DNA of 64,000 nucleotides from Candidatus Iainarchaeum sp. (lineage in GTDB: Archaea; Iainarchaeota; Iainarchaeia; Iainarchaeales; JAGVWC01). A program made the translations under genes and the position numbers. The notes under the pieces are model-generated. The model was not told the DNA's origin and did no database searches. It saw only the letters and a list, made by a program, of their open reading frames with translations. The DNA lies in contig JAGVWC010000008.1 of NCBI GenBank assembly GCA_018304465.1, positions 108,096-172,095 on the forward strand, written 5' to 3'. Below, piece after piece: positions 6,116 to 47,245 of the stretch. Position 1 is the stretch's first letter. Every line of letters starts with the position of its first letter.

Positions 6116-7273
6116 ATGTTCGACTTACTCAAAAAAAAACTCAGCGAATTCTCAAACCAACTTAAACAAACCATTCAACAAAAAACCGGCGAAGAAAACG
6201 CCAAACCAGCCGATTCTTCCAAAGCAACGCTTTCGAACACACCAATCGAACCTATTTTCGAAGACAAACCGGTTCCAATCACACCCACAGAAAAACCCGT
6301 TTTGAAAACCCCCATGATTGGAAAAAAACCACCCAAAGAAAAACCATCCGTATCAAAGCCGATTGCAAAAGACAAACGCGAACTCAAAACCAAAATCGGA
6401 ATCCTCGAAAAAACAAAAGCGATTTTTTCCGGAGAAATCGAACTAGGCGAAAAAGAAATCGCGAATCTGTTGGACGAACTCGAATTCGCGTTGCTTGAAG
6501 CCGACGTCGAACAAGAAACCGCCATCAAAATCGTTGACGCCATGCGTCAACGCCTGGTCGGAAAAAAGATTTCCAGCCGACAAAACATCGACGAATTCAT
6601 CAAAACCGAAATCAAACACGCGCTCGTCACAAGCCTTGAAATTCCCGATTACCAACCGTTTCTTTTCCGCATTCAAACCAAAAAACCATTTGTGATTCTC
6701 TTGCTTGGACCCAACGGCGCGGGAAAAACCACGACACTCGCCAAAATCGTGCGGCTCCTGCAAAAAAACAACAAAACCGCAATCCTTGCCGCCGCGGACA
6801 CGTTTCGCGCGGCCAGCATCGAACAACTCGAACAACACGCCAAACGCTTAAACGTCCGCCTCGTCAAACACACGTATGGCGCGGACCCGGCTGCCGTCGG
6901 ATTCGACACGATTGCCGCGGCCAAAAGCCACGATATCGACGTAGTTCTCATTGATTCCGCGGGACGCCAAGAAACCAACCAAAACCTCATGAAAGAACTG
7001 GAAAAAATCATCCGCGTCTGCAAACCCGACTTGAAACTATTCATTCTGGAAGGATACGCCGGACAAGCGTCGCTTGCCCAAGTCAAAGAATTCGACAAAC
7101 ATCTTTCCATTGACGGCGTGGTACTCACCAAAATGGACACCGACCCCAAAGGGGGCAGCGCGCTCTCCGTGCTCCACGAACTCAAAAAACCCATTTTTTT
7201 CATCGGAACCGGACAAGGCTACGACGACCTGGAAGAATTCGAACTCGAAAACGTACTCGACAAAATCGTTTGA
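6116..7273 (+). CDS. ftsY: Signal recognition particle receptor FtsY
   Basis: NG domain: LLGPNGAGKTTTLAKI, AAADTFRAASIEQLE, DSAGRQ, TKMDTDPKGGSALS, FIGTGQGYDDLE. Confidence 0.9.
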   Translation: MFDLLKKKLSEFSNQLKQTIQQKTGEENAKPADSSKATLSNTPIEPIFEDKPVPITPTEKPVLKTPMIGKKPPKEKPSVSKPIAKDKRELKTKIGILEKTKAIFSGEIELGEKEIANLLDELEFALLEADVEQETAIKIVDAMRQRLVGKKISSRQNIDEFIKTEIKHALVTSLEIPDYQPFLFRIQTKKPFVILLLGPNGAGKTTTLAKIVRLLQKNNKTAILAAADTFRAASIEQLEQHAKRLNVRLVKHTYGADPAAVGFDTIAAAKSHDIDVVLIDSAGRQETNQNLMKELEKIIRVCKPDLKLFILEGYAGQASLAQVKEFDKHLSIDGVVLTKMDTDPKGGSALSVLHELKKPIFFIGTGQGYDDLEEFELENVLDKIV

Positions 7274-9660: not shown

Positions 9661-11379
9661 ATGCGGGGAAAAATCCTATTGATTTTACTTTGCCTGTTGC
9701 TTCTAGCGTCTCCCCTGCTGGCCAAATCGTATTCCATCACCAACGCCAGCATCAAAATGCAAATCCACGACGACGCCAGCATCGACGCGGATGAAACACT
9801 CACGTTTCTTTTTTCCGGGCAATACACGTTTGCATACCGCGATATTCCCAATGGCTCCTGGCACATATCCGAGATTTCCGTGACCGAAAACGAAACACCC
9901 GTTCCATTCACCGTCACCCCAATCAACAACCAAACCCGCATTCGCTGGACCTACACCGCAAACTCGGAAATCCGCACGTTCACGATCCATTACCGATTGG
10001 AAAACGCGATCAAAGCGTATTCCGACGTCGCCGAACTCAACTGGAAAGTATGGGGCGACAACTGGGAAGTTCCCGTCACCAACCTGTACGGAGAAATCAT
10101 TCTTCCAAAACCCGTTTCGGACGCCAAACAAGTGTACTCCTGGGGGCACCCCAAAATCGAAGGAAAAATGGGGCTTGAAAACAACCAAAAACTCATCTTC
10201 CAAACACTGTACGCTCCCGCCAACCAATGGGTCGAAATCCGAATGGCGTTTCCACGCGAACTCTTGACCACCGTCACCTACGCGCAAACCGAAAATTCGC
10301 CCGGACTCCAAAAAATCGAAAGCGAGGAAAAACAATTCGCGCTTTACGACAGCTTATCCATTTTTCTCATTCCGCTCTTGATTCTTGCATTCATCGGGTT
10401 CCTCATCTGGACGTATTTATCGTTCGGAAAAGATCCCGAAGTTTCGTATCACGCGATTTATGAACGCGAACCACCGTACGAATACGGTCCCGCCATCGTG
10501 CAAGCGCTCAGCCGCGATTTTAGTCACACGCCGGATTCCAAAAGCTTTGTCGCCGAAATGTTTTACCTCGCGTGGCTTGGATACCTGCAATTCGAAAAAA
10601 TACCCAAAGAAAAAATCCTCGGCGTGTTCGGACGCGACTACGATTACAACGTCCGATACGCGAATCCCAAAAAACCCGTTTCCCTATCCGACAGCCAAAA
10701 TCACTTGCTGTCACTCCTCAAAAAATACACCGACAACCAAAACCCCTTCGCGTTCTCCAAATTCGAAGAAAAAACACGCCAACAAACAGGGGAATTCCAA
10801 AAAGACTTCAAAGCCTGGCAAAAACTCGTTGAAACCGAAGCCAAAAAAATGGATTTTTTCGAAAAAAAATCCGGACTCAAACGACTCATCGTCGGAACCC
10901 TGGCGTTCATTATTGCGCTGGCAATACTCGTCCCCGCCGGAGCCATTTTCTTAATCTGGATTTCGTTTCTGGCGTTCCCGGTATTTGCGCACATCATTTC
11001 CAAACGCACGGAAAAAGGAACGCTTCATCACAAACAATGGGAAAACTTCAAAAAATTCCTAAACGATTTTTCGCAAATCAAACAATACCCCCCTGAATCC
11101 CTCGTGCTGTGGGAAAAATACCTCGTGTACGCCATCGGGTTCGGAATCGCGGACAAAGTCGCCCAATACATGAAACTGTTGGTGTCTGAACGCGAACTCA
11201 CCAACAGCGCCATTTTCGTCGGCGGATACCACGGCGGATGGAACGACGTCAACGCCTTTGCCCAAAGCGCGGTCGCCTACGCTCCGTCCTTTGCAACGGC
11301 CAGCGGAACCAGCGGCAGCGGCGGATTCGGCGGAGGAGGCGGCGGAGGAGGCGGCGGGGGCGGCGGAGGCGCCGGATAA
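9661..11379 (+). CDS. DUF2207-family membrane protein with C-terminal poly-glycine tail
   Basis: Signal peptide, large extracellular domain, TM helices, and SGSGGFGGGGGGGGGGGGGGAG terminus typical of DUF2207/COG4907. Confidence 0.6.
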   Translation: MRGKILLILLCLLLLASPLLAKSYSITNASIKMQIHDDASIDADETLTFLFSGQYTFAYRDIPNGSWHISEISVTENETPVPFTVTPINNQTRIRWTYTANSEIRTFTIHYRLENAIKAYSDVAELNWKVWGDNWEVPVTNLYGEIILPKPVSDAKQVYSWGHPKIEGKMGLENNQKLIFQTLYAPANQWVEIRMAFPRELLTTVTYAQTENSPGLQKIESEEKQFALYDSLSIFLIPLLILAFIGFLIWTYLSFGKDPEVSYHAIYEREPPYEYGPAIVQALSRDFSHTPDSKSFVAEMFYLAWLGYLQFEKIPKEKILGVFGRDYDYNVRYANPKKPVSLSDSQNHLLSLLKKYTDNQNPFAFSKFEEKTRQQTGEFQKDFKAWQKLVETEAKKMDFFEKKSGLKRLIVGTLAFIIALAILVPAGAIFLIWISFLAFPVFAHIISKRTEKGTLHHKQWENFKKFLNDFSQIKQYPPESLVLWEKYLVYAIGFGIADKVAQYMKLLVSERELTNSAIFVGGYHGGWNDVNAFAQSAVAYAPSFATASGTSGSGGFGGGGGGGGGGGGGGAG

Positions 11380-12282: not shown

Positions 12283-12346
12283 GCGACCGACCAAGACCCT
12301 TTTTTTAATGCCTTCGGAGGCCAAAATCAGTACAAAAAGGATCTTT

Positions 12347-15300
12347 ATGGGCTTAGGCGACCAATTACGCGACGCAATGGAAAAACTGCGAAAAAGCACG
12401 TTTTCCGACCGCGACGAAATCAAAAGCATCGTCAAATCCATGCAACGCGCACTGATTTCAGCCGACGTACCCGTCAAACTCGTGCTCGAAGTATCCAAAA
12501 AAATCGAAGACGCCGCGTTCTCCGAACTTGCACCCGGACTCAACCGCCGCGAACACGTATTGAAAAACGCGTACGACAACCTCGCCGAAATACTCGGAGG
12601 ACAAACCAAACCCCCCCAAAACCCCAAACGCATTCTCATGGTCGGATTGTTCGGCTCCGGAAAATGCGTTCATCCTTTGACGATTGTGCCGACTGCGAAC
12701 GGGTGCGTTGAAACAATCCAAAAAATATACGAGAAAAACCCGGAAACGGAATTGACGCTCGAAGACGGATTTGTGAAAGAGTTGTCGAATCCGATCGAAG
12801 TTTTCTCGCTTAATCCACTCAACTTGAAAATGACAAGGGGAACAGTTTCACACATCTGGAAATTAAAAAAAGACAAATCCCTATACAAAGTCGCACTAGA
12901 CAACGGAAACAATCACGCAGTAATTGTCACACCGGAGCACCCGTTTTTTGTACTTGAAAACGCCCATATTAAAAAAACCAAAGCCGAGGAACTCACCGCG
13001 GGCGCATTTGTTGCGACACCAAGACAACTTCCTCTGCCAGAAAAACAAATCCCAATTAAGTACCTAGAGCAAAATCTTCCGCAGTCCTTTCAAGTGGTCT
13101 GCCCGGAACTGATAAATGAAGCCAAACAGTTTATGATCGCAAAATTTCATTCACTCACGAACGCATTTAACATTCTCGGAGAAGACTATGCGTATTGTAC
13201 ATTCACTGCAAACCTGAAGCGCGGGATATTGCGATTCTCAACTTTAAAAAAACTGAGGAATCAAGGGTTTGAGCCAAATGGAACACAGGAGATAAAGTTG
13301 AAAGAATTTGGCACGGGAGCGCGAACAATCCAGGTACCTAACCAACTAACGACCGAAATGGCGGAATTCATGGGGTATTTTTTTGCAGACGGCCATATGA
13401 GAAAGGAATATGTTGAAATTACCAACGAATCGAATGAAATACTCGATCGGATAGAAAAAATTGGAATGCGACTATTCCAGAAAAAACCGTGTCGAAAACA
13501 AGACAAGAGAAACGCTAACGTAAAACAAATCCTGTTCTGCTCAGGAGTCTTGACCAAGGCGCTTAACACGGTTTTTGGATTTCCATATTTTAAAAAAAGT
13601 GACATCATTCGCATACCCCCCATGATTTTGCAGGCGACAAAGGAAAATAAGTATGCCTTTTTGCAGGCATACTTTGACTGCGACGGCTACGTGTCAAAAA
13701 ACACTCGTCAGATAGAATTTTGCACTGCGAGTCCCCTCTTTGCTGAAGACCTGCGAATACTGCTCACAAGCCTTGAGATGCAGCCAAATTATAGCAAAAA
13801 GAAAATCAAGGACAAATATTACTACCGCGTCTGTATCAAATGCAAGGACGTGGAAACCTTCTTTCAGCGAGTAGGATCCCGAATTCCTTTCAAGCAAAAA
13901 CGCCTTGCGGGAATGTCTGAAATCGGAGTCGGCCAAACACTTGGAAAAAATGAATTGCTCCATGTCGGCCAATCCATCCGAGACGTTCGAAACCAACAGG
14001 GTGCAACCATTGGAGACATACAGCACCATGTTGGTTCCTACGGAATATACGAACAAGAAGGATTGATATCCCGCAATTCTCTTAAAAAATTCATTGAAGC
14101 GATCACGACTAAAACAAAAAACAAGAACAATCAGATACTCCAAAACACAATTCAACCGAAAAAACTGAATGAGTTAAGCACTGCGTTTCAAGAACCGCTT
14201 GGCTGGGTCAACGCCAATGTTTTTCGCCTGAAAGAACTTGGATTTGTCACATATTCCAACGGGGAAGTACAAACAACCGAACTCGGAAAGCAACTGCTTG
14301 AAAAAAACCAAAAAGACGAAGGGCTAGAACTTAAAAAACTAGAGTTGCTTGCCCATTCAGACATCACATGGATGAAAGTCAAGAAGATCGAGCTCGTTGA
14401 CAACACGGAATACGTGTACGACCTCACAGTTGATGAATACCATAACTTTGTTGCTAACCAGTTTATTGTACACAATACCACCACTTCCGGAAAACTCTGT
14501 CACTATTACCAAAAACGCGGAAAAAAAGTCGGACTGATCGCCGCGGACACGTTTCGACCCGCGGCCATGGAACAACTTGAACAAATCGCCAAAAAAATCA
14601 ACGCCACCGTCATCCTTGACAAAAACGAAACCAAACCCGAAAAAATAATCCAACAAGGATTACAACGCGAAAAAGAATTCGATTTGCTTATCTGCGATTC
14701 CGCCGGACGCAACGCGCTTGATTCCGAATTAGAACAAGAAATCAAAACCATCAACCAAACCTTCAAGCCCGACCAAGCCTGGCTCGTGCTCGGCGCGGAC
14801 CTCGGACAAATCGCCGGAACCCAAGCCAAAGCGTTTCACGACGCGGTCGGCGTCAACGGCGTGATCGTCACGCGCATGGACGGAAGCGCCAAAGGCGGCG
14901 GAACACTCGCGGCCTGCCGCCAAACCAACAGCCCCGTGTACTTTATCGGAACCGGCGAAAAAACATCCGACCTCGAAGAATTCGACGCGGTGCGATTCCT
15001 GTCCCGCATCATGGGATACGGAGACCTCCAATCGCTTTTGGAAAAAGCCCAAGAAGCCGCACAAGACACCGACATGGGACTCGAAGAACTGCTCGAACAC
15101 GACTACACCCTGGAAACGTTTTACAAACAACTCGAAGCCACCAACAAAATCGGCACCATGGACAAAATCATGGAAATGGTCGGAATGAAACAACAACTCC
15201 CAAAAGAAGCGGCGGAACAAGGACAAAAAAAACTCGAACAATTCCGGTTCATGATGCAAAGCATGACCAAAAAAGAAAAACAAAACCCCGATCTGATCAA

Positions 15301-15505
15301 TTCCAGCCGAATTCGCCGCATCGCCCGCGGAAGCGGCAACACCCAGGAAAACGTGCGCGAATTGCTCAAACAATACAAGCGAATGAAAAACGCGTTCAAA
15401 CAACTCAAAGGACTCGACGAAAAAAAACTACAACAAGGAATGGACATGAAAAAACTGCAGGAAATGTTTTCCCCGAAAAAAAAGAAAAAACTCCGTTTCC
15501 GCTAA
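12347..15505 (+). CDS. srp54: Signal recognition particle protein SRP54 interrupted by an intein (start could also be 12308)
   Basis: N domain, then G-domain P-loop split as GLFGSGK|C...VHN|TTTSGKL; downstream AADTFRPAAMEQLE, DSAGR, TRMDGSAKGG, M domain rich in Met. Extein reading frame preserved. Confidence 0.9.
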   Translation: MGLGDQLRDAMEKLRKSTFSDRDEIKSIVKSMQRALISADVPVKLVLEVSKKIEDAAFSELAPGLNRREHVLKNAYDNLAEILGGQTKPPQNPKRILMVGLFGSGKCVHPLTIVPTANGCVETIQKIYEKNPETELTLEDGFVKELSNPIEVFSLNPLNLKMTRGTVSHIWKLKKDKSLYKVALDNGNNHAVIVTPEHPFFVLENAHIKKTKAEELTAGAFVATPRQLPLPEKQIPIKYLEQNLPQSFQVVCPELINEAKQFMIAKFHSLTNAFNILGEDYAYCTFTANLKRGILRFSTLKKLRNQGFEPNGTQEIKLKEFGTGARTIQVPNQLTTEMAEFMGYFFADGHMRKEYVEITNESNEILDRIEKIGMRLFQKKPCRKQDKRNANVKQILFCSGVLTKALNTVFGFPYFKKSDIIRIPPMILQATKENKYAFLQAYFDCDGYVSKNTRQIEFCTASPLFAEDLRILLTSLEMQPNYSKKKIKDKYYYRVCIKCKDVETFFQRVGSRIPFKQKRLAGMSEIGVGQTLGKNELLHVGQSIRDVRNQQGATIGDIQHHVGSYGIYEQEGLISRNSLKKFIEAITTKTKNKNNQILQNTIQPKKLNELSTAFQEPLGWVNANVFRLKELGFVTYSNGEVQTTELGKQLLEKNQKDEGLELKKLELLAHSDITWMKVKKIELVDNTEYVYDLTVDEYHNFVANQFIVHNTTTSGKLCHYYQKRGKKVGLIAADTFRPAAMEQLEQIAKKINATVILDKNETKPEKIIQQGLQREKEFDLLICDSAGRNALDSELEQEIKTINQTFKPDQAWLVLGADLGQIAGTQAKAFHDAVGVNGVIVTRMDGSAKGGGTLAACRQTNSPVYFIGTGEKTSDLEEFDAVRFLSRIMGYGDLQSLLEKAQEAAQDTDMGLEELLEHDYTLETFYKQLEATNKIGTMDKIMEMVGMKQQLPKEAAEQGQKKLEQFRFMMQSMTKKEKQNPDLINSSRIRRIARGSGNTQENVRELLKQYKRMKNAFKQLKGLDEKKLQQGMDMKKLQEMFSPKKKKKLRFR
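12665..14476 (+). mobile_element. Intein in SRP54 P-loop (604 aa) with LAGLIDADG homing endonuclease domain
   Basis: Starts with Cys after GSGK, ends VHN before Thr+1; internal dodecapeptide motifs MGYFFADGHM and LQAYFDCDGYV. Confidence 0.85.
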
Positions 15506-29546: not shown

Positions 29547-32500
29547 ATGACAATTAAGTTCGTGAAAAAGCGAGACGGCCGCGTAGTCGCCTTTAATCAA
29601 GACACCATTACCAACGCGGTCTGGAAAGCCGCCAAAGCGGTTGGCGGAAAAGACAAATCACTGGCGGTCGAATTATCCAGAAAAGTCGTTCACGAACTCG
29701 AAAAAAAATTCCCCGAAAAACACGTTCCCACCGTGGAAGAAGTCCAGGACGCCGTTGAAAAAGTACTGATTGAACAAGGCCACGCGCGAACCGCGAAAGC
29801 CTACATCATTTACCGCCAGCAACACGCCGAAATCCGGCGCGAAAAAGCCCTGGTGCTTGACAAACAAGAAACCGACGAAGTCGACAAACGATTCGACTTA
29901 AACGCGTTACGCGTCTTAAAAGCGCGTTACCTGCGCAAAGACGCCGCGGGAAAAACCATCGAAACCCCAAAAGAACTCTTCACCCGCGTCGCGGTACACG
30001 TACTGATCCCCGAATTGCTCTACGATCCCCGCGTCTTTGACAAAGAAGCGACCCAAAAAACCCACCCCGTGGAGCCGTTTGACAACGTCGAAAACGAATA
30101 CAAATTATCCATTGGAAAATACCAACTCAACCAATACCATCTTGAAGCCCTAAAACGCGTGTACGATAAGTTTTCCCGCCAAGGCAAAATGAAAATGCCG
30201 TGGGGACGATTCTTAGAAATGCTCAAAAACGGAGAATTCGACCAACACGAAACCAGCGGAGACGAATTCTACAGCCTCATGGTGTACAAAAAATTCATGC
30301 CCAATACCCCTGCGATCGCCAATTTCGGAGCGGTCCTTGGAATGGGCAGCGCCTGTTTTGTTATGGATGTCCGCGACAATATCGAAGGCATCATGGACAC
30401 CCTCAAAAACGCCACCATCGTATTCAAATCCGGCGGCGGCGTCGGATACAATTTCTCGAAACTCCGACCCGAAGGCGATTTCGTTTCCACCACCACCGGC
30501 GCGGCCAGCGGCCCCATCTCGTTTATGGGACTGTTCGACAAAATGACCGAAGTCATCAAACAAGGCGGAATCCGCCGCGGCGCCAACATGGGAATTCTCA
30601 ACTGCCTTGCAGGAGATACCGAGATTTCAACCATTGAAGGACGCAAAAAAATCAAAGAACTGGTTGGAACACAACCCCACCTGTACTGCCTAAATGATAC
30701 CAATGAAGTGCGGATCCGGCAAGCGAACCGTGTCATCCACTCCGGCCAAAAAAAACTGGTTCGAATCACCTTCGACGACGATACCCGCATTGATTGCACG
30801 CCCGATCATCGCATCATGCGCTCGAACGGCCAGTATACACACGCCCAAGACCTCCAGCCCCTTGACAGCGTCATGGCGTTCCATAAGAAAATACTCAACG
30901 ACCGCTACTTTATCGGTTCCACTATGAGCCCACTTTCCCCCGAGCACGTCATCGCCACCGAAACCAACAGCAAAGTACTGATCGAGCAGACCGGCCAAAC
31001 ACGATTGTCCAACGACCTGTGCGTCCACCACAAGGACAACAACCCCCTCAATAACCACCCGAATAACCTGCAAGTGCTTACCATTTCAGAACATGCCAAA
31101 ATACACTCCGATGTCCTGATCGAAAACCAAAAAAGAATCGCGATTTCACGGAAAGGAAAAACGATCGAACAGGTTTATGGCAGCGAAAAAGCGGATGCAT
31201 GGAAACAAAAAATGAGCCAAGCACGACGAAACAAAAAACCTTGGAACGCCGGCTCCGACACAGAAGTCTACAAAGCCCATTACAAAAACGGATTCAAGAA
31301 CCAATACGAATACGCCAACGCCAACCACAAAGTGGTCAAAGTCGAACCACTGGAGGGCATTCACGACATCTACGACATTATCATGGACGATTACCACAAC
31401 TTCGTCGCGAACGGCGTCTTTGTCCACAACTCAAACCACCCGGACATCGAAAAATTCATCACCGCCAAAGAAGGCAACAAACAACTCACCAACTTCAATA
31501 TCTCCGTGCTCATGATGCCGGACTTCTGGGAATACTACAACAAAAACGAACCCTACCCCCTGATCAATCCCCGCGACGGAGAAGTCGTCCGAACCGTGAA
31601 CCCCCGCATGCTCTTTGACATGATTGTCTACCAAGCATGGGAAAGCGCGGAACCCGGCGTGATCTTCTACGACAAAGTCAACGAATACAACCCGTTCTAC
31701 GAACACCTCGGACCCATTGTGACCACGAATCCCTGCGTGACTGGAGACACGCGCGTATCCACCGCAAAAGGATTGGAACGCATCGACCAACTTGCACCCG
31801 GCCTAATTACTGTGGATTCGCGTGTAAACGCGCTTTCAAACAAAAGCGGCTCGAAATCGCTCCAACTTGGAACCCAGCAAGGAACCGCAATTCAGGTCAT
31901 TAAAACTGGAACCAAACCCGTGTTCCGAGTGGAAACCACCAGTGGATTTGAAATCAAAGCAACAGCAGATCACAAGATACTGACCCCCCACGGATGGAAA
32001 GCAGTTGAGCAACTGACCGCTGGAAACGAAATACTGATCCAAAGCGGGGCAGGAAAATTCAATTCAGATTCCGCATTACCTTTTATTGTGGAAAATACCC
32101 CCGTCGGAAAAAACGGAAAAAAGTACCGGAATAACCTTCCCGCAAAATGGAGCTACGATCTCGGCCTCGTTATGGGCTGGATGCTCGGCGACGGATGGCT
32201 CAATGATCAAGCGAACCAAGTGGGGCTCGTATTTTCAAAACCGGACTATGAAGCAAAAGAACAGCTCAAACCTATTTTTGAGCATTATTGTAACCGATCC
32301 ATAAAGCTCACCAACAGAGATCAAAGTGCAGTTCAGATCCGAAGCAACAGCAAGTATGTTACAGAGTACTTCTTCAAACTCGGACTCACTTCCGTCGATA
32401 AGGAAAAAGAAGTTCCAAGCACGATTTACACCGCAACCGAAGAGGCAGTCAGAGGATTCCTCAAAGGATTATTTTCTTCGGATGGAACTATTGCGCACCA

Positions 32501-34148
32501 AAAAGAGAGCAGAAACTATGTACGACTAAATTCCAGTTCACTTACATTACTCAAAGGAGCGCAACGATTGCTTCTCAATCTTGGAATCAAAAGTACGATT
32601 TATGATCGCTCAACCGAACCAAAAACATTCAAATACATCACGGCAAAAAACCAAACTAAGCAATATCAAACCAGTGGCGAAAATTATGAGCTAAATATCA
32701 GCAAAGAAAATTTGCCACGCTTTTTAGACAAAATCGGTTTCATTCAAAGCCGACACACCCAGACGGCAGCAAAAATACAACAACACGAATTTTACACTGA
32801 ATATTTTGTTGAAAAAATAAAAACCATCGAGGCTGCCGGCATCGAAGATGTCTACGATCTTACGGAACCGACCACCCATTCATTTATCGGAAACGGAATA
32901 CTGCTACATAATTGCGGCGAAGTATTGTTGTATCCGAACGAAAGCTGTAACCTTGGAAGCGTCAATGTCTGGACGTTTTTCAAAGAAGACGAAGACGGAA
33001 CCCAATACTTTGACTGGGATGACCTCAAAAAAACCGTGCAAACCGCAAGCAAGTTTCTCGACAACGTCATTGACGTGAACAAGTTTCCATTAAAAGCCAT
33101 CGAAGACATGACCGACGCCACGCGCAAAATCGGACTCGGAGTCATGGGCGTCGCCGACTTGTTTTACGAACTCAAACTCCCCTACAATTCCCCCGAAGCG
33201 CGCGATGCCGCCGAAAAACTCATGGAATTCATCAACTACCACAGCAAAGCCGTTTCCATTGACCTGGCCAAAACCCGCGGACCCATGCCCTACAACGACA
33301 AAAGCTTTTACCTCGAAGGCCGGCTCGCGATTTCAGGACCCGAAACCAAAGAAAAACTCCACTTCAACTGGGACGACATCCGCGAAGGATACAAAAAATT
33401 CGGTTCCCGCAACGGCTACAACACCGTCATCGCGCCCACCGGAAGCATCTCCATGATCGCGGGCTGCAGCTCCGGAATCGAACCCGTGTACTCACTCGTA
33501 TTCGAAAAAAACGTCAAAGTCGGAAGCTTCTACTACGTCGACCCCGTCTTTGAACGCATCATGAAACAAGAAGGACTCCACGACAGCAAACTCATGGAAG
33601 ACGTATCCGAAAACGGCGGAAGCATCCAACACATCCCGTATTTGACCAACGAACAAAAACACGTTTTCGTCACTGCCATGGACATCACCCCTGAAGACCA
33701 CATCCGAATGCTCGCCGCGTTCCAACGCTGGTGCGACTCCAGCATTTCGAAAACCAACAACTTTCCGGCCGACGCGACCGTCGAAGACATGCGCGCCAGT
33801 TACCTGCTCGCATACCAATTGGGATGCAAAGACGTTACGGTTTTCCGCGACAGCTCCATCAAAGCCCAAGTGCTGAACGCACCCAAGAAAAAAACCGTGG
33901 ACACGAGCTCGCTCAAACTCGAGGCCAGCAAAGCCCAAACCATGCAAGCGATTTCGCCTTCACCTGCCCCCATAACCCAAACCGCCAAACCCGCGGAAAC
34001 AAAACAAGTCACGGGCCGAAGCACTTCGACAGTCCAGCAACCCAAAAGCAAATACGAAATCACGAACTGCCCCAACTGCAACTCCGTGACCCAAATCAAA
34101 GAAGGCTGCGTCAACTGCCCCGAATGCGGCTGGGGAATGTGCAACTAA
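29547..34148 (+). CDS. nrdJ: Ribonucleoside-diphosphate/triphosphate reductase, class II (adenosylcobalamin-dependent), with ATP cone, two inteins and C-terminal zinc ribbon
   Basis: ATP cone KFVKKRDGRVVAFNQDTI; catalytic exteins ...GANMGILN|SNHPDIEKF... and ...TTNP|CGEVLLYPNESCNLGS; C-terminal CPNCNS...CVNCPECG. Confidence 0.85.
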   Translation: MTIKFVKKRDGRVVAFNQDTITNAVWKAAKAVGGKDKSLAVELSRKVVHELEKKFPEKHVPTVEEVQDAVEKVLIEQGHARTAKAYIIYRQQHAEIRREKALVLDKQETDEVDKRFDLNALRVLKARYLRKDAAGKTIETPKELFTRVAVHVLIPELLYDPRVFDKEATQKTHPVEPFDNVENEYKLSIGKYQLNQYHLEALKRVYDKFSRQGKMKMPWGRFLEMLKNGEFDQHETSGDEFYSLMVYKKFMPNTPAIANFGAVLGMGSACFVMDVRDNIEGIMDTLKNATIVFKSGGGVGYNFSKLRPEGDFVSTTTGAASGPISFMGLFDKMTEVIKQGGIRRGANMGILNCLAGDTEISTIEGRKKIKELVGTQPHLYCLNDTNEVRIRQANRVIHSGQKKLVRITFDDDTRIDCTPDHRIMRSNGQYTHAQDLQPLDSVMAFHKKILNDRYFIGSTMSPLSPEHVIATETNSKVLIEQTGQTRLSNDLCVHHKDNNPLNNHPNNLQVLTISEHAKIHSDVLIENQKRIAISRKGKTIEQVYGSEKADAWKQKMSQARRNKKPWNAGSDTEVYKAHYKNGFKNQYEYANANHKVVKVEPLEGIHDIYDIIMDDYHNFVANGVFVHNSNHPDIEKFITAKEGNKQLTNFNISVLMMPDFWEYYNKNEPYPLINPRDGEVVRTVNPRMLFDMIVYQAWESAEPGVIFYDKVNEYNPFYEHLGPIVTTNPCVTGDTRVSTAKGLERIDQLAPGLITVDSRVNALSNKSGSKSLQLGTQQGTAIQVIKTGTKPVFRVETTSGFEIKATADHKILTPHGWKAVEQLTAGNEILIQSGAGKFNSDSALPFIVENTPVGKNGKKYRNNLPAKWSYDLGLVMGWMLGDGWLNDQANQVGLVFSKPDYEAKEQLKPIFEHYCNRSIKLTNRDQSAVQIRSNSKYVTEYFFKLGLTSVDKEKEVPSTIYTATEEAVRGFLKGLFSSDGTIAHQKESRNYVRLNSSSLTLLKGAQRLLLNLGIKSTIYDRSTEPKTFKYITAKNQTKQYQTSGENYELNISKENLPRFLDKIGFIQSRHTQTAAKIQQHEFYTEYFVEKIKTIEAAGIEDVYDLTEPTTHSFIGNGILLHNCGEVLLYPNESCNLGSVNVWTFFKEDEDGTQYFDWDDLKKTVQTASKFLDNVIDVNKFPLKAIEDMTDATRKIGLGVMGVADLFYELKLPYNSPEARDAAEKLMEFINYHSKAVSIDLAKTRGPMPYNDKSFYLEGRLAISGPETKEKLHFNWDDIREGYKKFGSRNGYNTVIAPTGSISMIAGCSSGIEPVYSLVFEKNVKVGSFYYVDPVFERIMKQEGLHDSKLMEDVSENGGSIQHIPYLTNEQKHVFVTAMDITPEDHIRMLAAFQRWCDSSISKTNNFPADATVEDMRASYLLAYQLGCKDVTVFRDSSIKAQVLNAPKKKTVDTSSLKLEASKAQTMQAISPSPAPITQTAKPAETKQVTGRSTSTVQQPKSKYEITNCPNCNSVTQIKEGCVNCPECGWGMCN
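30603..31430 (+). mobile_element. Intein 1 in RNR (276 aa) carrying HNH endonuclease motif
   Basis: Begins CLAGDTEI, ends VFVHN before Ser+1; internal HHKDNNPLNNHPNNLQVLTISEHAKIH HNH box. Confidence 0.8.
31734..32912 (+). mobile_element. Intein 2 in RNR (393 aa) with LAGLIDADG homing endonuclease domain
   Basis: Begins CVTGDTRV, ends ILLHN before Cys+1 (CGEV); motifs MGWMLGDGWL and LKGLFSSDGTI. Confidence 0.85.
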
Positions 34149-34792: not shown

Positions 34793-34842
34793 GAAGAAAT
34801 CTGAATCCCATTCTTTTTAAGAATTCCCCCGCAAAATTATTT

Positions 34843-35112
34843 GGGCCAGGTGAGGGGGCTAGCGGTCCCCTGTACCCGAAATCCGCTTCATGCGGGAACC
34901 CACGCTGTCAAAACGTGAATTGGGCTTGTACCAAAGCCATTGTTTGGACGACGACCCTTTGTCCTAAAAGGTCGATGGCAATTGCCAACCCGCCAGGTTC
35001 GGAAGAAAGCAACGGTACCAATCGTCTTCGATGCTTTTAGACCGCAGAGGCGAGGAAAAACAATGGACTAAACTTTGGGACAAAACCAGTGCGCTATTTG
35101 GCAGCGGCCCAC
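34843..35112 (+). ncRNA. ffs: Signal recognition particle RNA (7S/SRP RNA)
   Basis: Helix 8 signature GCCAGGUUCGGAAGAAAGCAACGGUACC at 34990-35018; 5' GGGCC and 3' GGCCC ends can pair; GC-rich, ORF-free; located between two protein genes. Confidence 0.7.
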
Positions 35113-35119
35113 TTGAAAA

Positions 35120-37096: not shown

Positions 37097-38944
37097 ATGC
37101 AATACGCCCACCAAACCGGGGAAGACCTCTTAGAAAAAGTCCGCAACAGCCATTTTTCGTCGGAAATACCGCTGATTCGAAAAGCGCTTGAAAAAAACAA
37201 ACCTCTTCCCGAACACACCCGAACGCTTGCCATCGACACGGCAAGCACGTTGACCCAATTTGGATTCGGAAAAACGGCCGTCTGCGCGGCACTGCTTCAA
37301 TTCCACGATCTTGAAACCCTCAAAGGCGAATTCGAATCCGAAATACTGGAACTGGCCCACGGACTGCAAAAAATCGAGCGCGTGAAAGCCAAGAACCGGG
37401 GAAAACTATCCCCGGAATCACTGCAAAAAATCATTCTGGCCTTGTCACCGGATCCCCAAATCATCATCATCTGGATCTGCAAAAAACTCGTGGAACTGAG
37501 GTTTTTGTCCGAACAACCCAAAGACGAACAACTTCCGCTGGCCGAAGACGTGCTCAATCAATGGGTCCCCGTTATTCACAAACTCGGGCTGCACAAAATC
37601 CGGTGGGAAATCGAAGATCTGGCCATGAAAAAAATCCTGCCCAAAGAATACAAAGCCATCAAAGAATACCTCAACGACAAGCGAAACACGCGACAAGAAA
37701 AAATGCGCGAACTCGTCGAAAAACTCCGATCCGCGCTACAAAAAGCCCAACTTGAAGCTGTGGTATTCGGACGCGTCAAAAACTTTTACCGCATTTACAA
37801 AAAAATGAACGAACAAAAACGAAACCTGAAAGACATCCACGATTTGATCGGCGCGCGCGTCATCTGCAACAGCGTAAACGAGTGCTACGAAACACTTGCC
37901 GTGATCCAGAACTCCTTCAAACTCGAAACCCAAGGATTCGATGATTACATCCAAAAACCCAAAAAAACAAAGTACCAATCCATTCACGTCGACCTGGACT
38001 GGAAAGGAATACCATCCGAAATACAGATTCGAACCTGGGAGATGCACAAAGAAGCCGAAGAAGGCGTCGCCGCGCACTGGGAATACAAACAATACAAAAA
38101 AGACCCGACGTTTGACCGGCACTTAACGATTGCCAAACAACTGGCGGAATGGTTCGACCAAGTACACCACAAAAGCATCATGGACTCGCTGAACCTAAAA
38201 TTCGAAAAAAACAAAATCTTCGTTTTAACCCCAAAAAGCGAACTCGTGGAGCTGCCCGAAAAAGCCACCCCCGTCGATTTTGCGTTTGCCGTGCACACAG
38301 AACTCGGATACAAATGCGAAAAAGCCCGCGTGAACGGAAAAATCGTCCCGCTCGATTACCAACTCCAAAACGCGGACAGCGTCGAAATCATCACCAGCGA
38401 AAAGCAAATTCCAAAACAACACTGGTTAACGTTTGTTCAAACCGAAAAAGCGAAACAAAAAATCCGAACCAAACTGAACATCGTTCCGACAAAACCCGAA
38501 AAAGAAAAAAAAACCGGAATCGTAAAAGCGACGTTCCGGAAAAACGCGCAGTTCCTTCCCGCCAAATGCTGCTCGCCGATTCCGGGCGATGAAATCGTCG
38601 GGCACAAAACCACGAAACGAAAAATAAAAATCCACCGGATCGACTGCCCCAATGCCCAGCGGATACCCGAAGACGAGCGACTGACACTATCCAACGCATC
38701 GTTCACTCAAAAAGAATTCGAAACCACGCTGCGAATCAACGTGCACAACCAGCCGGGAGTACTCTCCGAAATACTGGACGCCATCGGCAAACACGATACC
38801 AAAATCATTTCCACCGAAGCCGTTACGCACGCGCACTCAATCACATGCCGATTCCGCATCAAAACAAAAAACAGGAAAACCTTCGAGCAAACCGCCGAAC
38901 GCGTACAGAAAATCAAAGGGATTATCGACGTACAACGCGGATGA
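37097..38944 (+). CDS. Long RelA/SpoT homolog (partly degenerate HD, synthetase, TGS, ACT)
   Basis: AALLQFHDLE HD remnant; synthetase DLIGARVICNS...YQSIHVDL...EIQIRTWEMHKEAEEGVAAHWEYK; TGS IFVLTPKSELVELPEKATPVDFAFAVHTELG; C-terminal ACT-like. Confidence 0.75.
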   Translation: MQYAHQTGEDLLEKVRNSHFSSEIPLIRKALEKNKPLPEHTRTLAIDTASTLTQFGFGKTAVCAALLQFHDLETLKGEFESEILELAHGLQKIERVKAKNRGKLSPESLQKIILALSPDPQIIIIWICKKLVELRFLSEQPKDEQLPLAEDVLNQWVPVIHKLGLHKIRWEIEDLAMKKILPKEYKAIKEYLNDKRNTRQEKMRELVEKLRSALQKAQLEAVVFGRVKNFYRIYKKMNEQKRNLKDIHDLIGARVICNSVNECYETLAVIQNSFKLETQGFDDYIQKPKKTKYQSIHVDLDWKGIPSEIQIRTWEMHKEAEEGVAAHWEYKQYKKDPTFDRHLTIAKQLAEWFDQVHHKSIMDSLNLKFEKNKIFVLTPKSELVELPEKATPVDFAFAVHTELGYKCEKARVNGKIVPLDYQLQNADSVEIITSEKQIPKQHWLTFVQTEKAKQKIRTKLNIVPTKPEKEKKTGIVKATFRKNAQFLPAKCCSPIPGDEIVGHKTTKRKIKIHRIDCPNAQRIPEDERLTLSNASFTQKEFETTLRINVHNQPGVLSEILDAIGKHDTKIISTEAVTHAHSITCRFRIKTKNRKTFEQTAERVQKIKGIIDVQRG

Positions 38945-46232: not shown

Positions 46233-47015
46233 TTAAAAGCGTTGAGTCCTAAGACTCAGTTTTTCCGCAGTTTTGGCTAAACGCCACTGTTTGACAGGGT
46301 GCAAAAATAAGTGATTTTCCGCCAAAAAAACAATATCAGAAAAACGTTCCACTTGAATATACGCCGAAACGTTATTTGGATCCAAATAAGGACCGTTCAT
46401 TTTCAGTCCGAAAGCCGATTCGAAAAGACTTTTCACTTCACGAATAAACGGGATACATTTCATTCGAATTTTGACGCGAGGGGCAGATTTAAATCCACCT
46501 TCTACGGCACGTGTGTCTCCCTCCGCGTCAAATAAACCCCGCAAAAACCACCGTTGTAATTCCACTGGAGCGTTCCAGACCACAGCAGGGGCATGTAATG
46601 AATTCGTCTTTGAACCGCACGGAAGTTCAAAAAGAACAGTCAAAAATAAATACACCCGCTTACTTGTCGGGTTGATGTACAGCGTTCGTTCCCCTTTACT
46701 TAAACGCTCATAGCGAATAGGGGGACAATCGCCAAACAAATCAGAATACAACGATTGAATAAACATCATCTGAGACTCAAATTCGTCCGCGATGATCATC
46801 TTGTACTCCCGACGGCGGGAAACCAAATATGAACGCTCGACATTCTTTAATCCACCGTCACCGAAGAAATAACCAGCAAAATACGCGAGTTTTGGCGAAA
46901 GCTCCGTTGGGCAGTTTGCAAATTCATGACTTGGTAAAGAATCAATCGGACTTGCGGGACAGAAAGGATCAACCAATTCGGATTCCGAAATAAAGCCATA
47001 AGCTGTTCGAAGCAT
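46233..47015 (-). CDS. Free-standing LAGLIDADG homing endonuclease
   Basis: Two dodecapeptide motifs LAYFAGYFFGDGG and LRGLFDAEGD; no intein splice boxes at the termini. Confidence 0.75.
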   Translation of the reverse strand: MLRTAYGFISESELVDPFCPASPIDSLPSHEFANCPTELSPKLAYFAGYFFGDGGLKNVERSYLVSRRREYKMIIADEFESQMMFIQSLYSDLFGDCPPIRYERLSKGERTLYINPTSKRVYLFLTVLFELPCGSKTNSLHAPAVVWNAPVELQRWFLRGLFDAEGDTRAVEGGFKSAPRVKIRMKCIPFIREVKSLFESAFGLKMNGPYLDPNNVSAYIQVERFSDIVFLAENHLFLHPVKQWRLAKTAEKLSLRTQRF

Positions 47016-47082: not shown

Positions 47083-47168
47083 CGGGCTCAGTGGGGATCG
47101 AACCCACGATCACTCGGTTGCTCCAAGAACCTAAGAGCCGAGTGCTTTACCGGCTAAGCTATGAGCCC
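47083..47168 (-). tRNA. tRNA-Lys (CTT) with 13-nt anticodon-loop intron
   Basis: GGGCTCA TA GCTT AGCCGGTA AAGC A CTCGG CTCTTA[GGTTCTTGGAGCA]A CCGAG TGATC GTGGG TTCGATC CCCAC TGAGCCC G; anticodon assignment depends on exact intron boundaries. Confidence 0.55.
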
Positions 47169-47173
47169 AAATG

Positions 47174-47245
47174 CGAGACCGGTGGGACTCGAACCCACAG
47201 CCCACGGGTTAAAAGCCCGTTGCGCTACCATTGCGCCACGATCCC
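47174..47245 (-). tRNA. tRNA-Lys (TTT)
   Basis: GGGATCG TG GCGC AATGGTA GCGC A ACGGG CTTTTAA CCCGT GGGCT GTGGG TTCGAGT CCCAC CGGTCTC G; acceptor has two G-U pairs. Confidence 0.75.

Follow-up and report, generated by a model that had tools for sequence, protein, structure and literature searches.

The closest described relatives of the intein considered here are the VMA inteins of Thermococcus litoralis and Pyrococcus horikoshii, which occupy the VMA-b site (PDB 7qss, 7qsu, 7qst; PMC8966425). These are archaeal class 1 elements inserted into the P-loop of the A-ATPase A subunit, and they combine a Hint splicing domain and a LAGLIDADG endonuclease with an accessory domain (ACD) that follows the endonuclease and precedes the Hint C-lobe. 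Large archaeal LAGLIDADG inteins with extra DNA-binding modules are also represented by PI-PfuI (1dq3; RNR) and PI-PkoII/PI-TkoII (2cw7; DNA polymerase), which reside in other host genes at insertion sites outside Walker A. A eukaryotic precedent for an SRP-pathway GTPase as host is provided by the SRP-receptor intein of Rhizophagus, and in Anaeramoeba related inteins have spread from one Walker A motif to another, among NTPases that are paralogous or unrelated (PMC10710043). Those that sit in the P-loops of Anaeramoeba belong to class 3 and, like that of Rhizophagus, are eukaryotic; they parallel the archaeal class 1 intein described below in the pattern of hosts and spread. In the survey by Novikova et al. 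2016, SRP54 does not appear among the top archaeal intein hosts (PMC4760082).

In the 64-kb stretch of DNA analysed here as a whole (hereafter the window), which comes from a DPANN-type archaeon, we identify with high confidence an intein of class 1 that has a double-motif LAGLIDADG homing endonuclease nested in it and that separates the Walker A lysine of srp54 from the threonine. The kind of element is textbook, and it leaves the understanding of how inteins work unchanged. Its SRP54 host is another matter: no account of an intein in SRP54 turned up in searches of the searchable literature that combined intein or LAGLIDADG with SRP, Ffh, FtsY and DPANN, the supplements of Novikova et al. 2016 lying outside their scope. 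SRP54 is hereby added to the P-loop NTPases known to host inteins.

The interrupted srp54 gene

SRP54 is an essential protein-targeting GTPase, and its gene in the window is organised as follows:

12308-15505, forward strand: srp54 precursor open reading frame, 1065 aa plus stop (Pfam)
12308-12664, forward strand: N-extein, with the SRP54 N domain and the beginning of the G domain, ending at the Walker A lysine (LFGSGK) (Pfam SRP54_N; alignment to 2v3c)
12665-14476, forward strand: class 1 intein of 604 aa (Cys1 ... His-Asn, +1 Thr) (motifs, Pfam, AF2, Foldseek)
14477-15505, forward strand: C-extein, with TTTSGK, the remaining G domain and the M domain (Pfam SRP54 724-902 and SRP_SPB 933-1029; 2v3c alignment)

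The true start codon is probably the ATG at 12347 (Met14) rather than position 12308, because homologues begin at the equivalent of Met14 (MGLGDQL; MGLG/MSLG). The original prediction of a 604-aa insert splitting the SRP54 Walker A box is confirmed to the base: the insert runs in frame from Cys120 to Asn723, its flanks read ...LFGSGK / CVHPLT...QFIVHN / TTTSGKL, and one unbroken reading frame crosses both junctions. The first residue of the C-extein is the Walker A threonine of TTTSGK, which doubles as the +1 splice nucleophile. On the complete reading frame Pfam recovers SRP54_N (PF02881), the SRP54 GTPase (PF00448; 4.5e-59) and SRP_SPB (PF02978; 2.1e-26), and the N, G (SRP-type GTPase) and M domains of SRP54 are all present once the protein is spliced. 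Excision in silico, which the prediction had offered as a check, yields a product of 461 aa that is continuous with SRP54—its residues 16-429 align to M. jannaschii SRP54 (2v3c) with an E-value of 5.4e-113, gapless through GSGKTTT, and the G motifs GSGKTT, DTFRPAA, DSAGR, TRMDG and GTGE are intact. The GC content is 42.2% in the intein (GC3 46%) and 49.8% in the extein (GC3 58.8%), a difference that counts as evidence of mobility.

The chance that this arrangement is an artefact, arising from a chimeric assembly or from a pseudogenised srp54 into which an unrelated endonuclease gene had been inserted, is negligible. The 1065-aa precursor has no exact match in the contig collection, and the only sequence at 100% identity is a 530-aa ENA protein (P0027), which comprises the last 187 residues of the intein, the C-junction and the whole C-extein. 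We rejected both versions of the artefact on the strength of the single open frame, of the complete identity of P0027 over the C-junction and of a search of the 64-kb window that found no second srp54 gene; the recurrence of the same architecture in more than 150 independent assemblies also speaks against them. The appropriate annotation of the gene is SRP54 with an intein, whereas many of the public copies go by 'LAGLIDADG family homing endonuclease'. The intein must be removed before SRP54 enters marker-gene or phylogenomic pipelines.

The splicing domain

The two lobes of the Hint domain enclose the rest of the intein and carry its splicing blocks:

12665-13024, forward strand: Hint N-lobe, intein aa 1-120 (AF2 beta-strand lobe)
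12665-12667, forward strand: block A, Cys1, the nucleophile (conserved in 84/84)
12929-12940, forward strand: block B, TPEH (T89-P-E-H92; H92 in 84/84, T89 in 83/84)
14360-14476, forward strand: Hint C-lobe, intein aa 566-604 (conserved residues; phmmer)
14411-14458, forward strand: block F, YVYDLTVDEYHNFVAN (D586 in 84/84, H593 in 83/84)
14459-14476, forward strand: block G, QFIVHN (H603 and N604 in 84/84)

Conservation was assessed in an alignment of 84 sequences, namely that of the window and 83 public full-length proteins; 83 of the 84 are SRP54 and one (P0046) is FtsY. All share the junction G-x-G-K / C...H-N / T-T, and C1, H92, D586, H603, N604 and T+1 are invariant throughout. Blocks A, B, F and G, on which the intein reading had been made to depend, are hence all present and conserved in 83-84 of the 84 sequences. 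Profile and fold searches point the same way, identifying the Hint domain as well as the LAGLIDADG domain treated below. Pfam Intein_splicing (PF14890) matches residues 130-723 of the reading frame (1.4e-30), and the Hint C-lobe retrieves with phmmer the C-termini of the RadA, TFIIB and DnaB mini-inteins. The AF2 model of the intein (pLDDT 91.3, pTM 0.88) superimposes in Foldseek on mini-inteins (RadA, CDC21, TFIIB) with an rmsd of ~2 A over ~125 columns.

The conserved residues and the predicted fold suggest a standard splicing route. The 1065-aa precursor would be unable to bind GTP because 604 residues split its P-loop. An N-S acyl shift at Cys1 would be followed by transfer of the acyl group to the hydroxyl of Thr+1, which is the Mg2+-coordinating Walker A residue; cyclisation of Asn604 would free the intein, and an O-N shift would remake GSGK-TTTSGK to give active SRP54 of 461 aa (~448 aa if the start is at Met14).

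The P-loop position ties host activity strictly to splicing, raising the possibility that the intein has been domesticated as a post-translational switch, with conditional splicing (in response to redox state, temperature or substrate) gating the SRP54 GTPase to the benefit of the host. The 10 cysteines of the intein, among them Cys1 and Cys14, and the persistence of the family across several DPANN phyla speak for such a role, and Novikova et al. (PMC4760082) make the case that selection may retain P-loop inteins. We nevertheless consider a switch very unlikely: the closest relatives manage without the intein, and the strong conservation of the nuclease and accessory modules suggests selection for mobility, not regulation. 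The reading that we favour is that of a genuine mobile intein that is probably active.

The endonuclease and accessory modules

Between the two Hint lobes lie three further modules:

13028-13312, forward strand: helical insert separating the Hint N-lobe from the endonuclease, intein aa 122-216 (AF2 helices 132-199)
13328-13864, forward strand: double-motif LAGLIDADG homing endonuclease domain, intein aa 222-400 (Pfam, phmmer, Foldseek)
13358-13396, forward strand: LAGLIDADG motif 1, MAEFMGYFFADGH, intein aa 232-244, with Asp242
13652-13690, forward strand: LAGLIDADG motif 2, YAFLQAYFDCDGY, intein aa 330-342, with Asp340
13877-14359, forward strand: accessory domain region, intein aa 405-565 (AF2 models, Foldseek)
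14000-14083, forward strand: conserved motif GATIGEIQ..SYG.YE..G.ISR of the helical module with which the accessory region begins
14198-14254, forward strand: helix-helix-helix-hairpin unit of the accessory region, resembling a winged helix (AF2)

Both dodecapeptide motifs that the insert had been said to carry are found in it. Pfam LAGLIDADG_3 (PF14528) matches the endonuclease in two stretches (8.9e-20), and phmmer aligns this part of the intein with the TliVMA endonuclease (6e-20). AF2 predicts the LAGLIDADG helices at residues 230-242 and 326-340, each with a strand after it, and Foldseek recovers the pseudo-dimeric alpha-beta-beta-alpha-beta-beta-alpha core through I-DmoI and I-Tsp061I (target-normalised TM 0.65-0.76). 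Of the two catalytic acidic residues, D340 is retained in all 84 aligned homologues and D242 in 82, the other two having one E and one N. The mean pairwise identity of the endonuclease domain (0.45) is comparable to that of the host N (0.46) and M (0.41) domains and falls within the range of the host domains (0.41-0.52). Conservation as strong as that of the host protein is evidence, at the level of sequence, for selection acting on the endonuclease.

The helical insert is the least conserved module (mean pairwise identity 0.28) and may contact DNA. In the accessory region the Foldseek matches are weak (E 0.01-0.1), the top ones being mostly to MarR/Sso10a/CggR winged-helix DNA-binding domains, and we predict from the modelled structure that this region binds DNA. 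A Pfam scan of intein residues ~122-218 and 396-567 with E-values up to 10 gave nothing usable; the fold assignment of both extra modules accordingly comes from AF2 and weak Foldseek matches only.

Structurally, the best match of the whole intein is TliVMA (Foldseek E 1e-28; target-normalised TM 0.84), and PI-PkoII (3e-26), PI-PfuI (3e-21) and PhoVMA are also retrieved. The T. litoralis and P. horikoshii VMA inteins are likewise the best matches in sequence (phmmer E 3e-21), and the phmmer matches to PI-PfuI and PI-PkoII cover Hint-N, the nuclease and Hint-C. The accessory region of the window intein takes the place that the ACD has in the VMA inteins (PMC8966425). However, the identity to the VMA inteins in the structural alignment is only ~15-18%, and the window intein is 170-230 residues longer: its winged-helix-like accessory region is much larger than theirs, and it has the extra helical insert where they have a loop of 28-32 residues. 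The hosts also differ, being an ATPase in the VMA inteins and the SRP54 GTPase in the window. With its accessory modules, this 604-aa enzyme could yield meganucleases of new specificity as well as a splicing domain that uses Thr+1.

Probable homing and distribution in SRP54

Once freed, and assisted by its accessory modules, the intein would recognise the P-loop DNA of an intein-less srp54, for which the reconstituted 60-bp site reads CTCATGGTCGGATTGTTCGGCTCCGGAAAA / ACCACCACTTCCGGAAAACTCTGTCACTAT, and cleave it; recombinational repair would then copy the intein in. Such cleavage draws indirect support from the conservation of the endonuclease domain and from the patchy distribution described below. 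The target codes for an invariant catalytic motif in an essential gene; the site varies little and tolerates only precise loss of the intein, which accounts for the persistence and recurrence of the element across DPANN archaea.

A homologous intein occurs at the same site of SRP54 in more than 150 public protein clusters (90% identity), mostly from DPANN (P0001-P0093 and P0224-P0293), with database matches reaching 100% coverage of the query and E-values down to 4e-223. The MAGs concerned are labelled Micrarchaeota and Woese-, Pace-, Nano- and Aenigmatarchaeota. The window intein has in common with this family the insertion site, the four-module architecture and the length, full-length inteins of ~570-610 aa being the predominant form. 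The nearest intein-bearing allele (P0001/L003) shares with the window only 57% of its intein residues, a divergence at which synonymous sites are saturated and dN/dS is of no use, and 64% of its extein residues; it groups with the window intein in 59 of 60 bootstraps.

In contrast to the public family, the clade of the window (labelled Diapherotrites/Iainarchaeum) is otherwise intein-free at the SRP54 site among the matches listed. None of the 119 other closest full-length SRP54 relatives in that list (53-81% identity) has an intein, one of them being encoded in a syntenic genome (L001) with an SRP54 81% identical to that of the window; the remaining listed match, P0027, is a fragment of the window's own intein-bearing gene. 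Hence, the distribution of the intein is sporadic, and the nearest intein-bearing allele is joined to a more distant extein (64%), both of which speak for mobility. The suggestion that the allele may be uncommon therefore stands for the window's clade (0/119 listed relatives), and no paper describing it was found, but it does not stand for the public databases with their more than 150 clusters.

Extein and intein pairwise identities are correlated (Spearman 0.64), so that vertical descent and losses, and not frequent homing, could account for much of the family's history. A co-conversion test, by sliding nucleotide identity of the window extein against L001 (intein-free) and L003 (intein-bearing), finds only 30 codons just downstream of the junction to be nearer to L003 (0.83 vs 0.78 for L001), and this stretch is 90% protein-conserved in both comparisons. 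The same covariation would suit an intein that still splices while its endonuclease no longer homes, i.e. a fixed vertical passenger that is slowly being lost at a late stage of the homing cycle, and a Bathyarchaeota-labelled MAG (L068) has at this site of SRP54 a 211-aa mini-intein lacking the endonuclease, which shows that endonuclease loss does occur there. We nonetheless judge this unlikely, given that the endonuclease matches the essential host domains in conservation and that 82-84 of 84 sequences retain its catalytic acidic residues. The predominance of full-length inteins, the patchy presence among close relatives in the matches listed and the transfer into the paralogous FtsY, to which we now turn, also favour an intein that is still mobile.

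FtsY and other Walker A hosts

Two other components of the SRP pathway are encoded in the window:

6116-7273, forward strand: ftsY, the SRP receptor paralogue, intein-free (P-loop GPNGAGKTTT)
34839-35114, forward strand: archaeal SRP RNA, partner of the spliced SRP54 (Rfam RF01857, 118.4 bits; gathering score 96.5)

That ftsY in the window lacks an intein, as first noted from the DNA, is borne out by its uninterrupted P-loop. In other DPANN lineages, the corresponding P-loop position of FtsY is occupied by a homologous intein.

These FtsY inteins (L016/P0220, P0046, L009/P0230, L023 and P0288) share 52-61% identity with the SRP54 inteins of their own subclade, from which they differ in their host, the paralogous SRP receptor. 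They nest within the tree of SRP54 inteins at at least two places. In L009, FtsY holds the intein and the adjoining SRP54 is empty, reading GKS instead of GKT. The JGI record of P0288, a related FtsY protein, bears the name 'signal recognition particle GTPase/intein/homing endonuclease'. The nearest relatives outside the SRP GTPases all sit after the Walker A GK of other proteins, namely a T4P/T2SS ATPase, an IF2-like GTPase, an ABC ATPase and SMC. There is about an even chance, in our estimate, that these elements constitute an undescribed lineage of large Walker-A-specialised DPANN inteins with an active endonuclease and winged-helix-like modules, which moved at least twice between SRP54 and FtsY and shares ancestry with the P-loop inteins of T4P/T2SS, IF2-like, ABC and SMC proteins. 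If so, archaea would have an equivalent of the transfers between paralogues and from P-loop to P-loop that were reported in 2023 for the eukaryote Anaeramoeba alone.

As two paralogues in one genome, one occupied and the other empty, SRP54 and FtsY offer a natural test of how an endonuclease discriminates, or now and then fails to, between near-identical Walker-A-coding DNA. In the window, the P-loop DNA of ftsY and the reconstituted srp54 site agree at 35 of 60 nucleotides, and GGAAAAACCAC at the centre is identical. The cognate SRP RNA and the receptor of the spliced SRP54 are both present alongside the interrupted gene.

Boundaries and splicing residues of the SRP54 intein

The whole region is enclosed by a single ORF of 1065 codons at 12308..15505 (+), whose translation reads ...RILMVGLFGSGK followed by CVHPLT... 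at the N-junction and, 604 residues downstream, ...ANQFIVHN followed by TTTSGKLCHY. The insert, precursor residues 120-723, occupies nt 12665-14476, exactly the limits of the original prediction. As homologues begin at the position of Met14 of this ORF, the real start codon of srp54 is probably at 12347. Pfam searches of the precursor recover SRP54_N, the SRP54 GTPase domain (4.5e-59) and SRP_SPB (2.1e-26), together with both anticipated intein components, Intein_splicing (1.4e-30; aa 130-723) and LAGLIDADG_3 (8.9e-20, in two stretches). In-silico excision yields a 461-aa protein, residues 16-429 of which align with M. jannaschii SRP54 (2v3c; E 5.4e-113), unbroken through LVGIQGSGKTTT/MVGLFGSGKTTT, so that the predicted continuity across the P-loop is borne out. 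This product keeps the G motifs DTFRPAA, DSAGR, TRMDG and GTGE and the RNA-binding segment of the M domain.

We aligned 84 full-length sequences, namely that of the window and 83 public proteins (intein numbering is used below). The junction G-x-G-K/C...H-N/T-T (slashes mark splice junctions) is invariant; the expected splicing-block residues C1, H92 (block B, TPEH), D586 (block F), H603, N604 and T+1 are conserved in all 84, and T89 and H593 in 83. Judged by these residues, the insert is a canonical class 1 intein. By established intein chemistry, splicing would proceed in four steps via Cys1, Thr+1 and Asn604, the +1 nucleophile position being the Walker A threonine of SRP54 itself. Since Walker A is split in the precursor, SRP54 cannot work as a GTPase until it is spliced. 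The protein is essential, and the window encodes both the SRP RNA that it partners with (34839-35114) and its receptor, which argues that splicing must be efficient.

Domain architecture and the endonuclease

An AlphaFold2 model of the intein, computed from an alignment of 20 sequences, has high confidence (pLDDT 91.3, pTM 0.88) and comprises five parts:

Parts of the modelled intein (intein residues)
1-120: Hint N-lobe
122-216: helical insert
222-400: LAGLIDADG core, motifs at 232-244 and 330-342
405-565: helical region with a terminal helix-helix-helix-hairpin unit
566-604: Hint C-lobe

The best Foldseek match in the PDB is the Thermococcus litoralis VMA intein (7qss; E 1e-28, TM 0.84 normalised to the target), with which the sequence search concurs (E 3e-21); other leading matches are PI-PkoII (2cw7), PI-PfuI (1dq3) and the P. 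horikoshii VMA intein (7qst), and the nuclease core resembles I-DmoI (TM about 0.7). The accessory domain (ACD), modelled separately (pLDDT 88.7), gives weak matches (E 0.01-0.1), the best being mostly winged-helix DNA-binding domains of MarR, Sso10a and CggR, and a Pfam scan of it found no domain; DNA binding by residues 405-565 and 122-216 is accordingly putative.

The VMA inteins are P-loop inteins of the VMA-b site with a Hint, endonuclease and ACD layout, the ACD modulating DNA recognition (PMC8966425). The window's intein shares this layout and way of working, but its ACD is much larger, and it falls outside the VMA-b allele because its host gene differs. As in the LAGLIDADG family generally, homing would involve double-strand cleavage of an empty srp54 allele, followed by recombinational repair that copies the intein into the cut allele.

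Both catalytic acidic positions are kept across the family, D242 in 82 of the 84 sequences (Glu in one more) and D340 in every one. Averaged over all sequence pairs, identity is 0.45 in the nuclease domain, 0.49 and 0.56 in the Hint lobes, and 0.46, 0.52 and 0.41 in the N, G and M domains of the host protein. Conserved like an essential host protein, the nuclease is under purifying selection, which is good indirect evidence, though not proof, of an active endonuclease.

Distribution and history of the SRP54 allele

In kind, the element is an ordinary archaeal homing-endonuclease intein, and a member of an SRP54 P-loop allele family present in public data. A search of 5.8 billion clustered proteins, with the intein as query, recovered 93 clusters with a full-length homologue flanked by SRP54-family domains (best 57% identical), with labels including Micrarchaeota, Nanoarchaeota and Woesearchaeota; a later search added about 70, including Pacearchaeota and Aenigmatarchaeota, for a total above 150. 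For many of them the sole name given is 'LAGLIDADG family homing endonuclease', and a related FtsY protein (P0288) bears the JGI name 'signal recognition particle GTPase/intein/homing endonuclease'. We found no description of the family in a searchable literature of 8 million papers. In keeping with the prediction that SRP54 is not a commonly listed host, it is missing from the leading hosts in the tabulation of Novikova et al. (PMC4760082). Precedents are an SRP-receptor intein in Rhizophagus and P-loop and interparalogue intein transfers in Anaeramoeba (PMC10710043).

Among genomes scanned at one per species, 23 loci have an SRP54 intein at the same site (three labelled Thermoplasmatota): 22 with a full-length intein or fragment, and a Bathyarchaeota-labelled MAG (DAOVAG010000003.1, 3001-3633) with a 211-aa mini-intein that lacks the endonuclease and ends in Gln-Asn, not His-Asn. 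The latter appears to be a degenerate relative from outside DPANN, going by the MAG label. The intein is absent from all 119 best full-length SRP54 matches to the spliced extein (each about 448 aa; 53-81% identity; labels Diapherotrites, Iainarchaeum and Micrarchaeota). The suggestion that the allele may be uncommon hence holds among these closest exteins, but not across the more than 150 clusters that carry it.

The closest relative (P0101/L001; 81% amino-acid and 79% nucleotide identity) has an empty site, and its genes srp54, peptidase A24, RTC, epimerase, PcrB, RPA and RadA stand in the same order as in the window. The closest intein-bearing relative (P0001/L003) is syntenic too, yet its extein matches at only 64% identity. 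GC content is lower in the intein than in the host gene (42.2% vs 49.8%), and so is GC3 (46% vs 59%). Extein and intein distances are correlated (Spearman 0.64), suggesting a history that mixes descent, loss and transfer.

Relatives at other Walker A motifs and in FtsY

In the first non-SRP matches, every insertion follows the Walker A GK of another NTPase:

Junctions in other NTPases
T4P/T2SS-type ATPases: GSRGAGK/C and GSRGSGK/C
IF2-like GTPase: GHVDHGK/C
ABC ATPase: GPSGSGK/C
SMC: GPNGCGK/C

The FtsY P-loop also hosts homologous inteins, in other DPANN genomes:

FtsY inteins
L016/P0220 and P0046: GINGSGK/C...HN/TT, exteins 52-54% identical to the window's FtsY
L009/P0230: P-loop intein
L023: P-loop intein, more distant
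P0221-P0223, P0288 and P0290: assigned from Pfam domain content alone

In a simple neighbour-joining tree with 60 bootstraps, FtsY inteins are monophyletic in none, the L009 FtsY intein pairs with the SRP54 intein of P0044 (61% identity) in 49, and the window's intein pairs with P0001 in 59. The non-monophyly and the L009/P0044 pairing indicate, within the reach of such a tree, that inteins moved between the paralogues at least twice. Whether the window's intein itself belongs to a Walker-A-hopping lineage we consider evenly balanced. The window's own ftsY is unoccupied, as predicted; at the P-loop its DNA has the central GGAAAAACCAC in common with the srp54 site and agrees overall at only 35/60 positions, a low match that may explain the empty site.

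The L009 contig (Nanoarchaeota MAG JBBSXH010000034.1) carries an intein-bearing FtsY ORF (42-2747) and an intein-free SRP54 (from 5025) whose target reads GAGK-STT, not GK-TTT; the two sites have 35/60 nt in common. The Ser variant recurs in 8 of the 119 SRP54 proteins that lack the intein and may reflect a change of the target site affecting susceptibility.

Other inteins and genes of the window

With two inteins in the ribonucleotide reductase gene and one in a Xer-type tyrosine recombinase gene, the window is intein-rich, which fits an organism with active homing elements. These genes are listed here together with a free-standing ORF:

29547-34148 (+): ribonucleotide reductase large subunit, 1533 aa; ATP-cone, RNR_lgN, RNR_lgC; two inteins
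30603-31430 (+): its first intein, 276 aa, sub-threshold HNH-type nuclease match; GILN/CLAGDT...FVHN/S
31734-32912 (+): its second intein, 393 aa, LAGLIDADG domain; TTNP/CVTGDT...LLHN/C
54223-56331 (-): Xer-type tyrosine recombinase; Phage_integrase and N-terminal SAM-like domain
54373-55617 (-): its intein, 415 aa, LAGLIDADG
46233-47015 (-): free-standing 260-aa ORF with LAGLIDADG-like motifs FAGYFFGDGG and FLRGLFDAEGD

The reductase of the syntenic L003 has 925 aa, so at least one of the two inteins is missing there. The recombinase, not known as a usual intein host, is split in its conserved active-site box HxxRH/SxATH (PHSMRH/CVEANT...FVVHN/SYATHLL). The free-standing ORF directly adjoins tRNAs at 47083-47168 (-) and 47174-47245 (-); the former, of 86 nt, may contain an intron, since Rfam calls it and ARAGORN does not.

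Elsewhere, a 615-aa RelA/SpoT homologue at 37097-38944 (+) combines HD_4, RelA_SpoT, TGS and ACT in a host that looks DPANN; as RSH proteins of such length are unusual for archaea, it may be a horizontal acquisition. At 60036-62180 (+), a 714-aa protein fuses a glutamine amidotransferase/asparagine synthase to a Diphthami_syn_2 (diphthine-ammonia ligase-like) domain. Upstream of srp54, a 572-aa ORF (9661-11379, +) has an N-terminal hydrophobic stretch resembling a signal peptide and a C-terminal run of 14 glycines, and the GC-rich segment 11000-11600 gives overlapping spurious ORFs on both strands.
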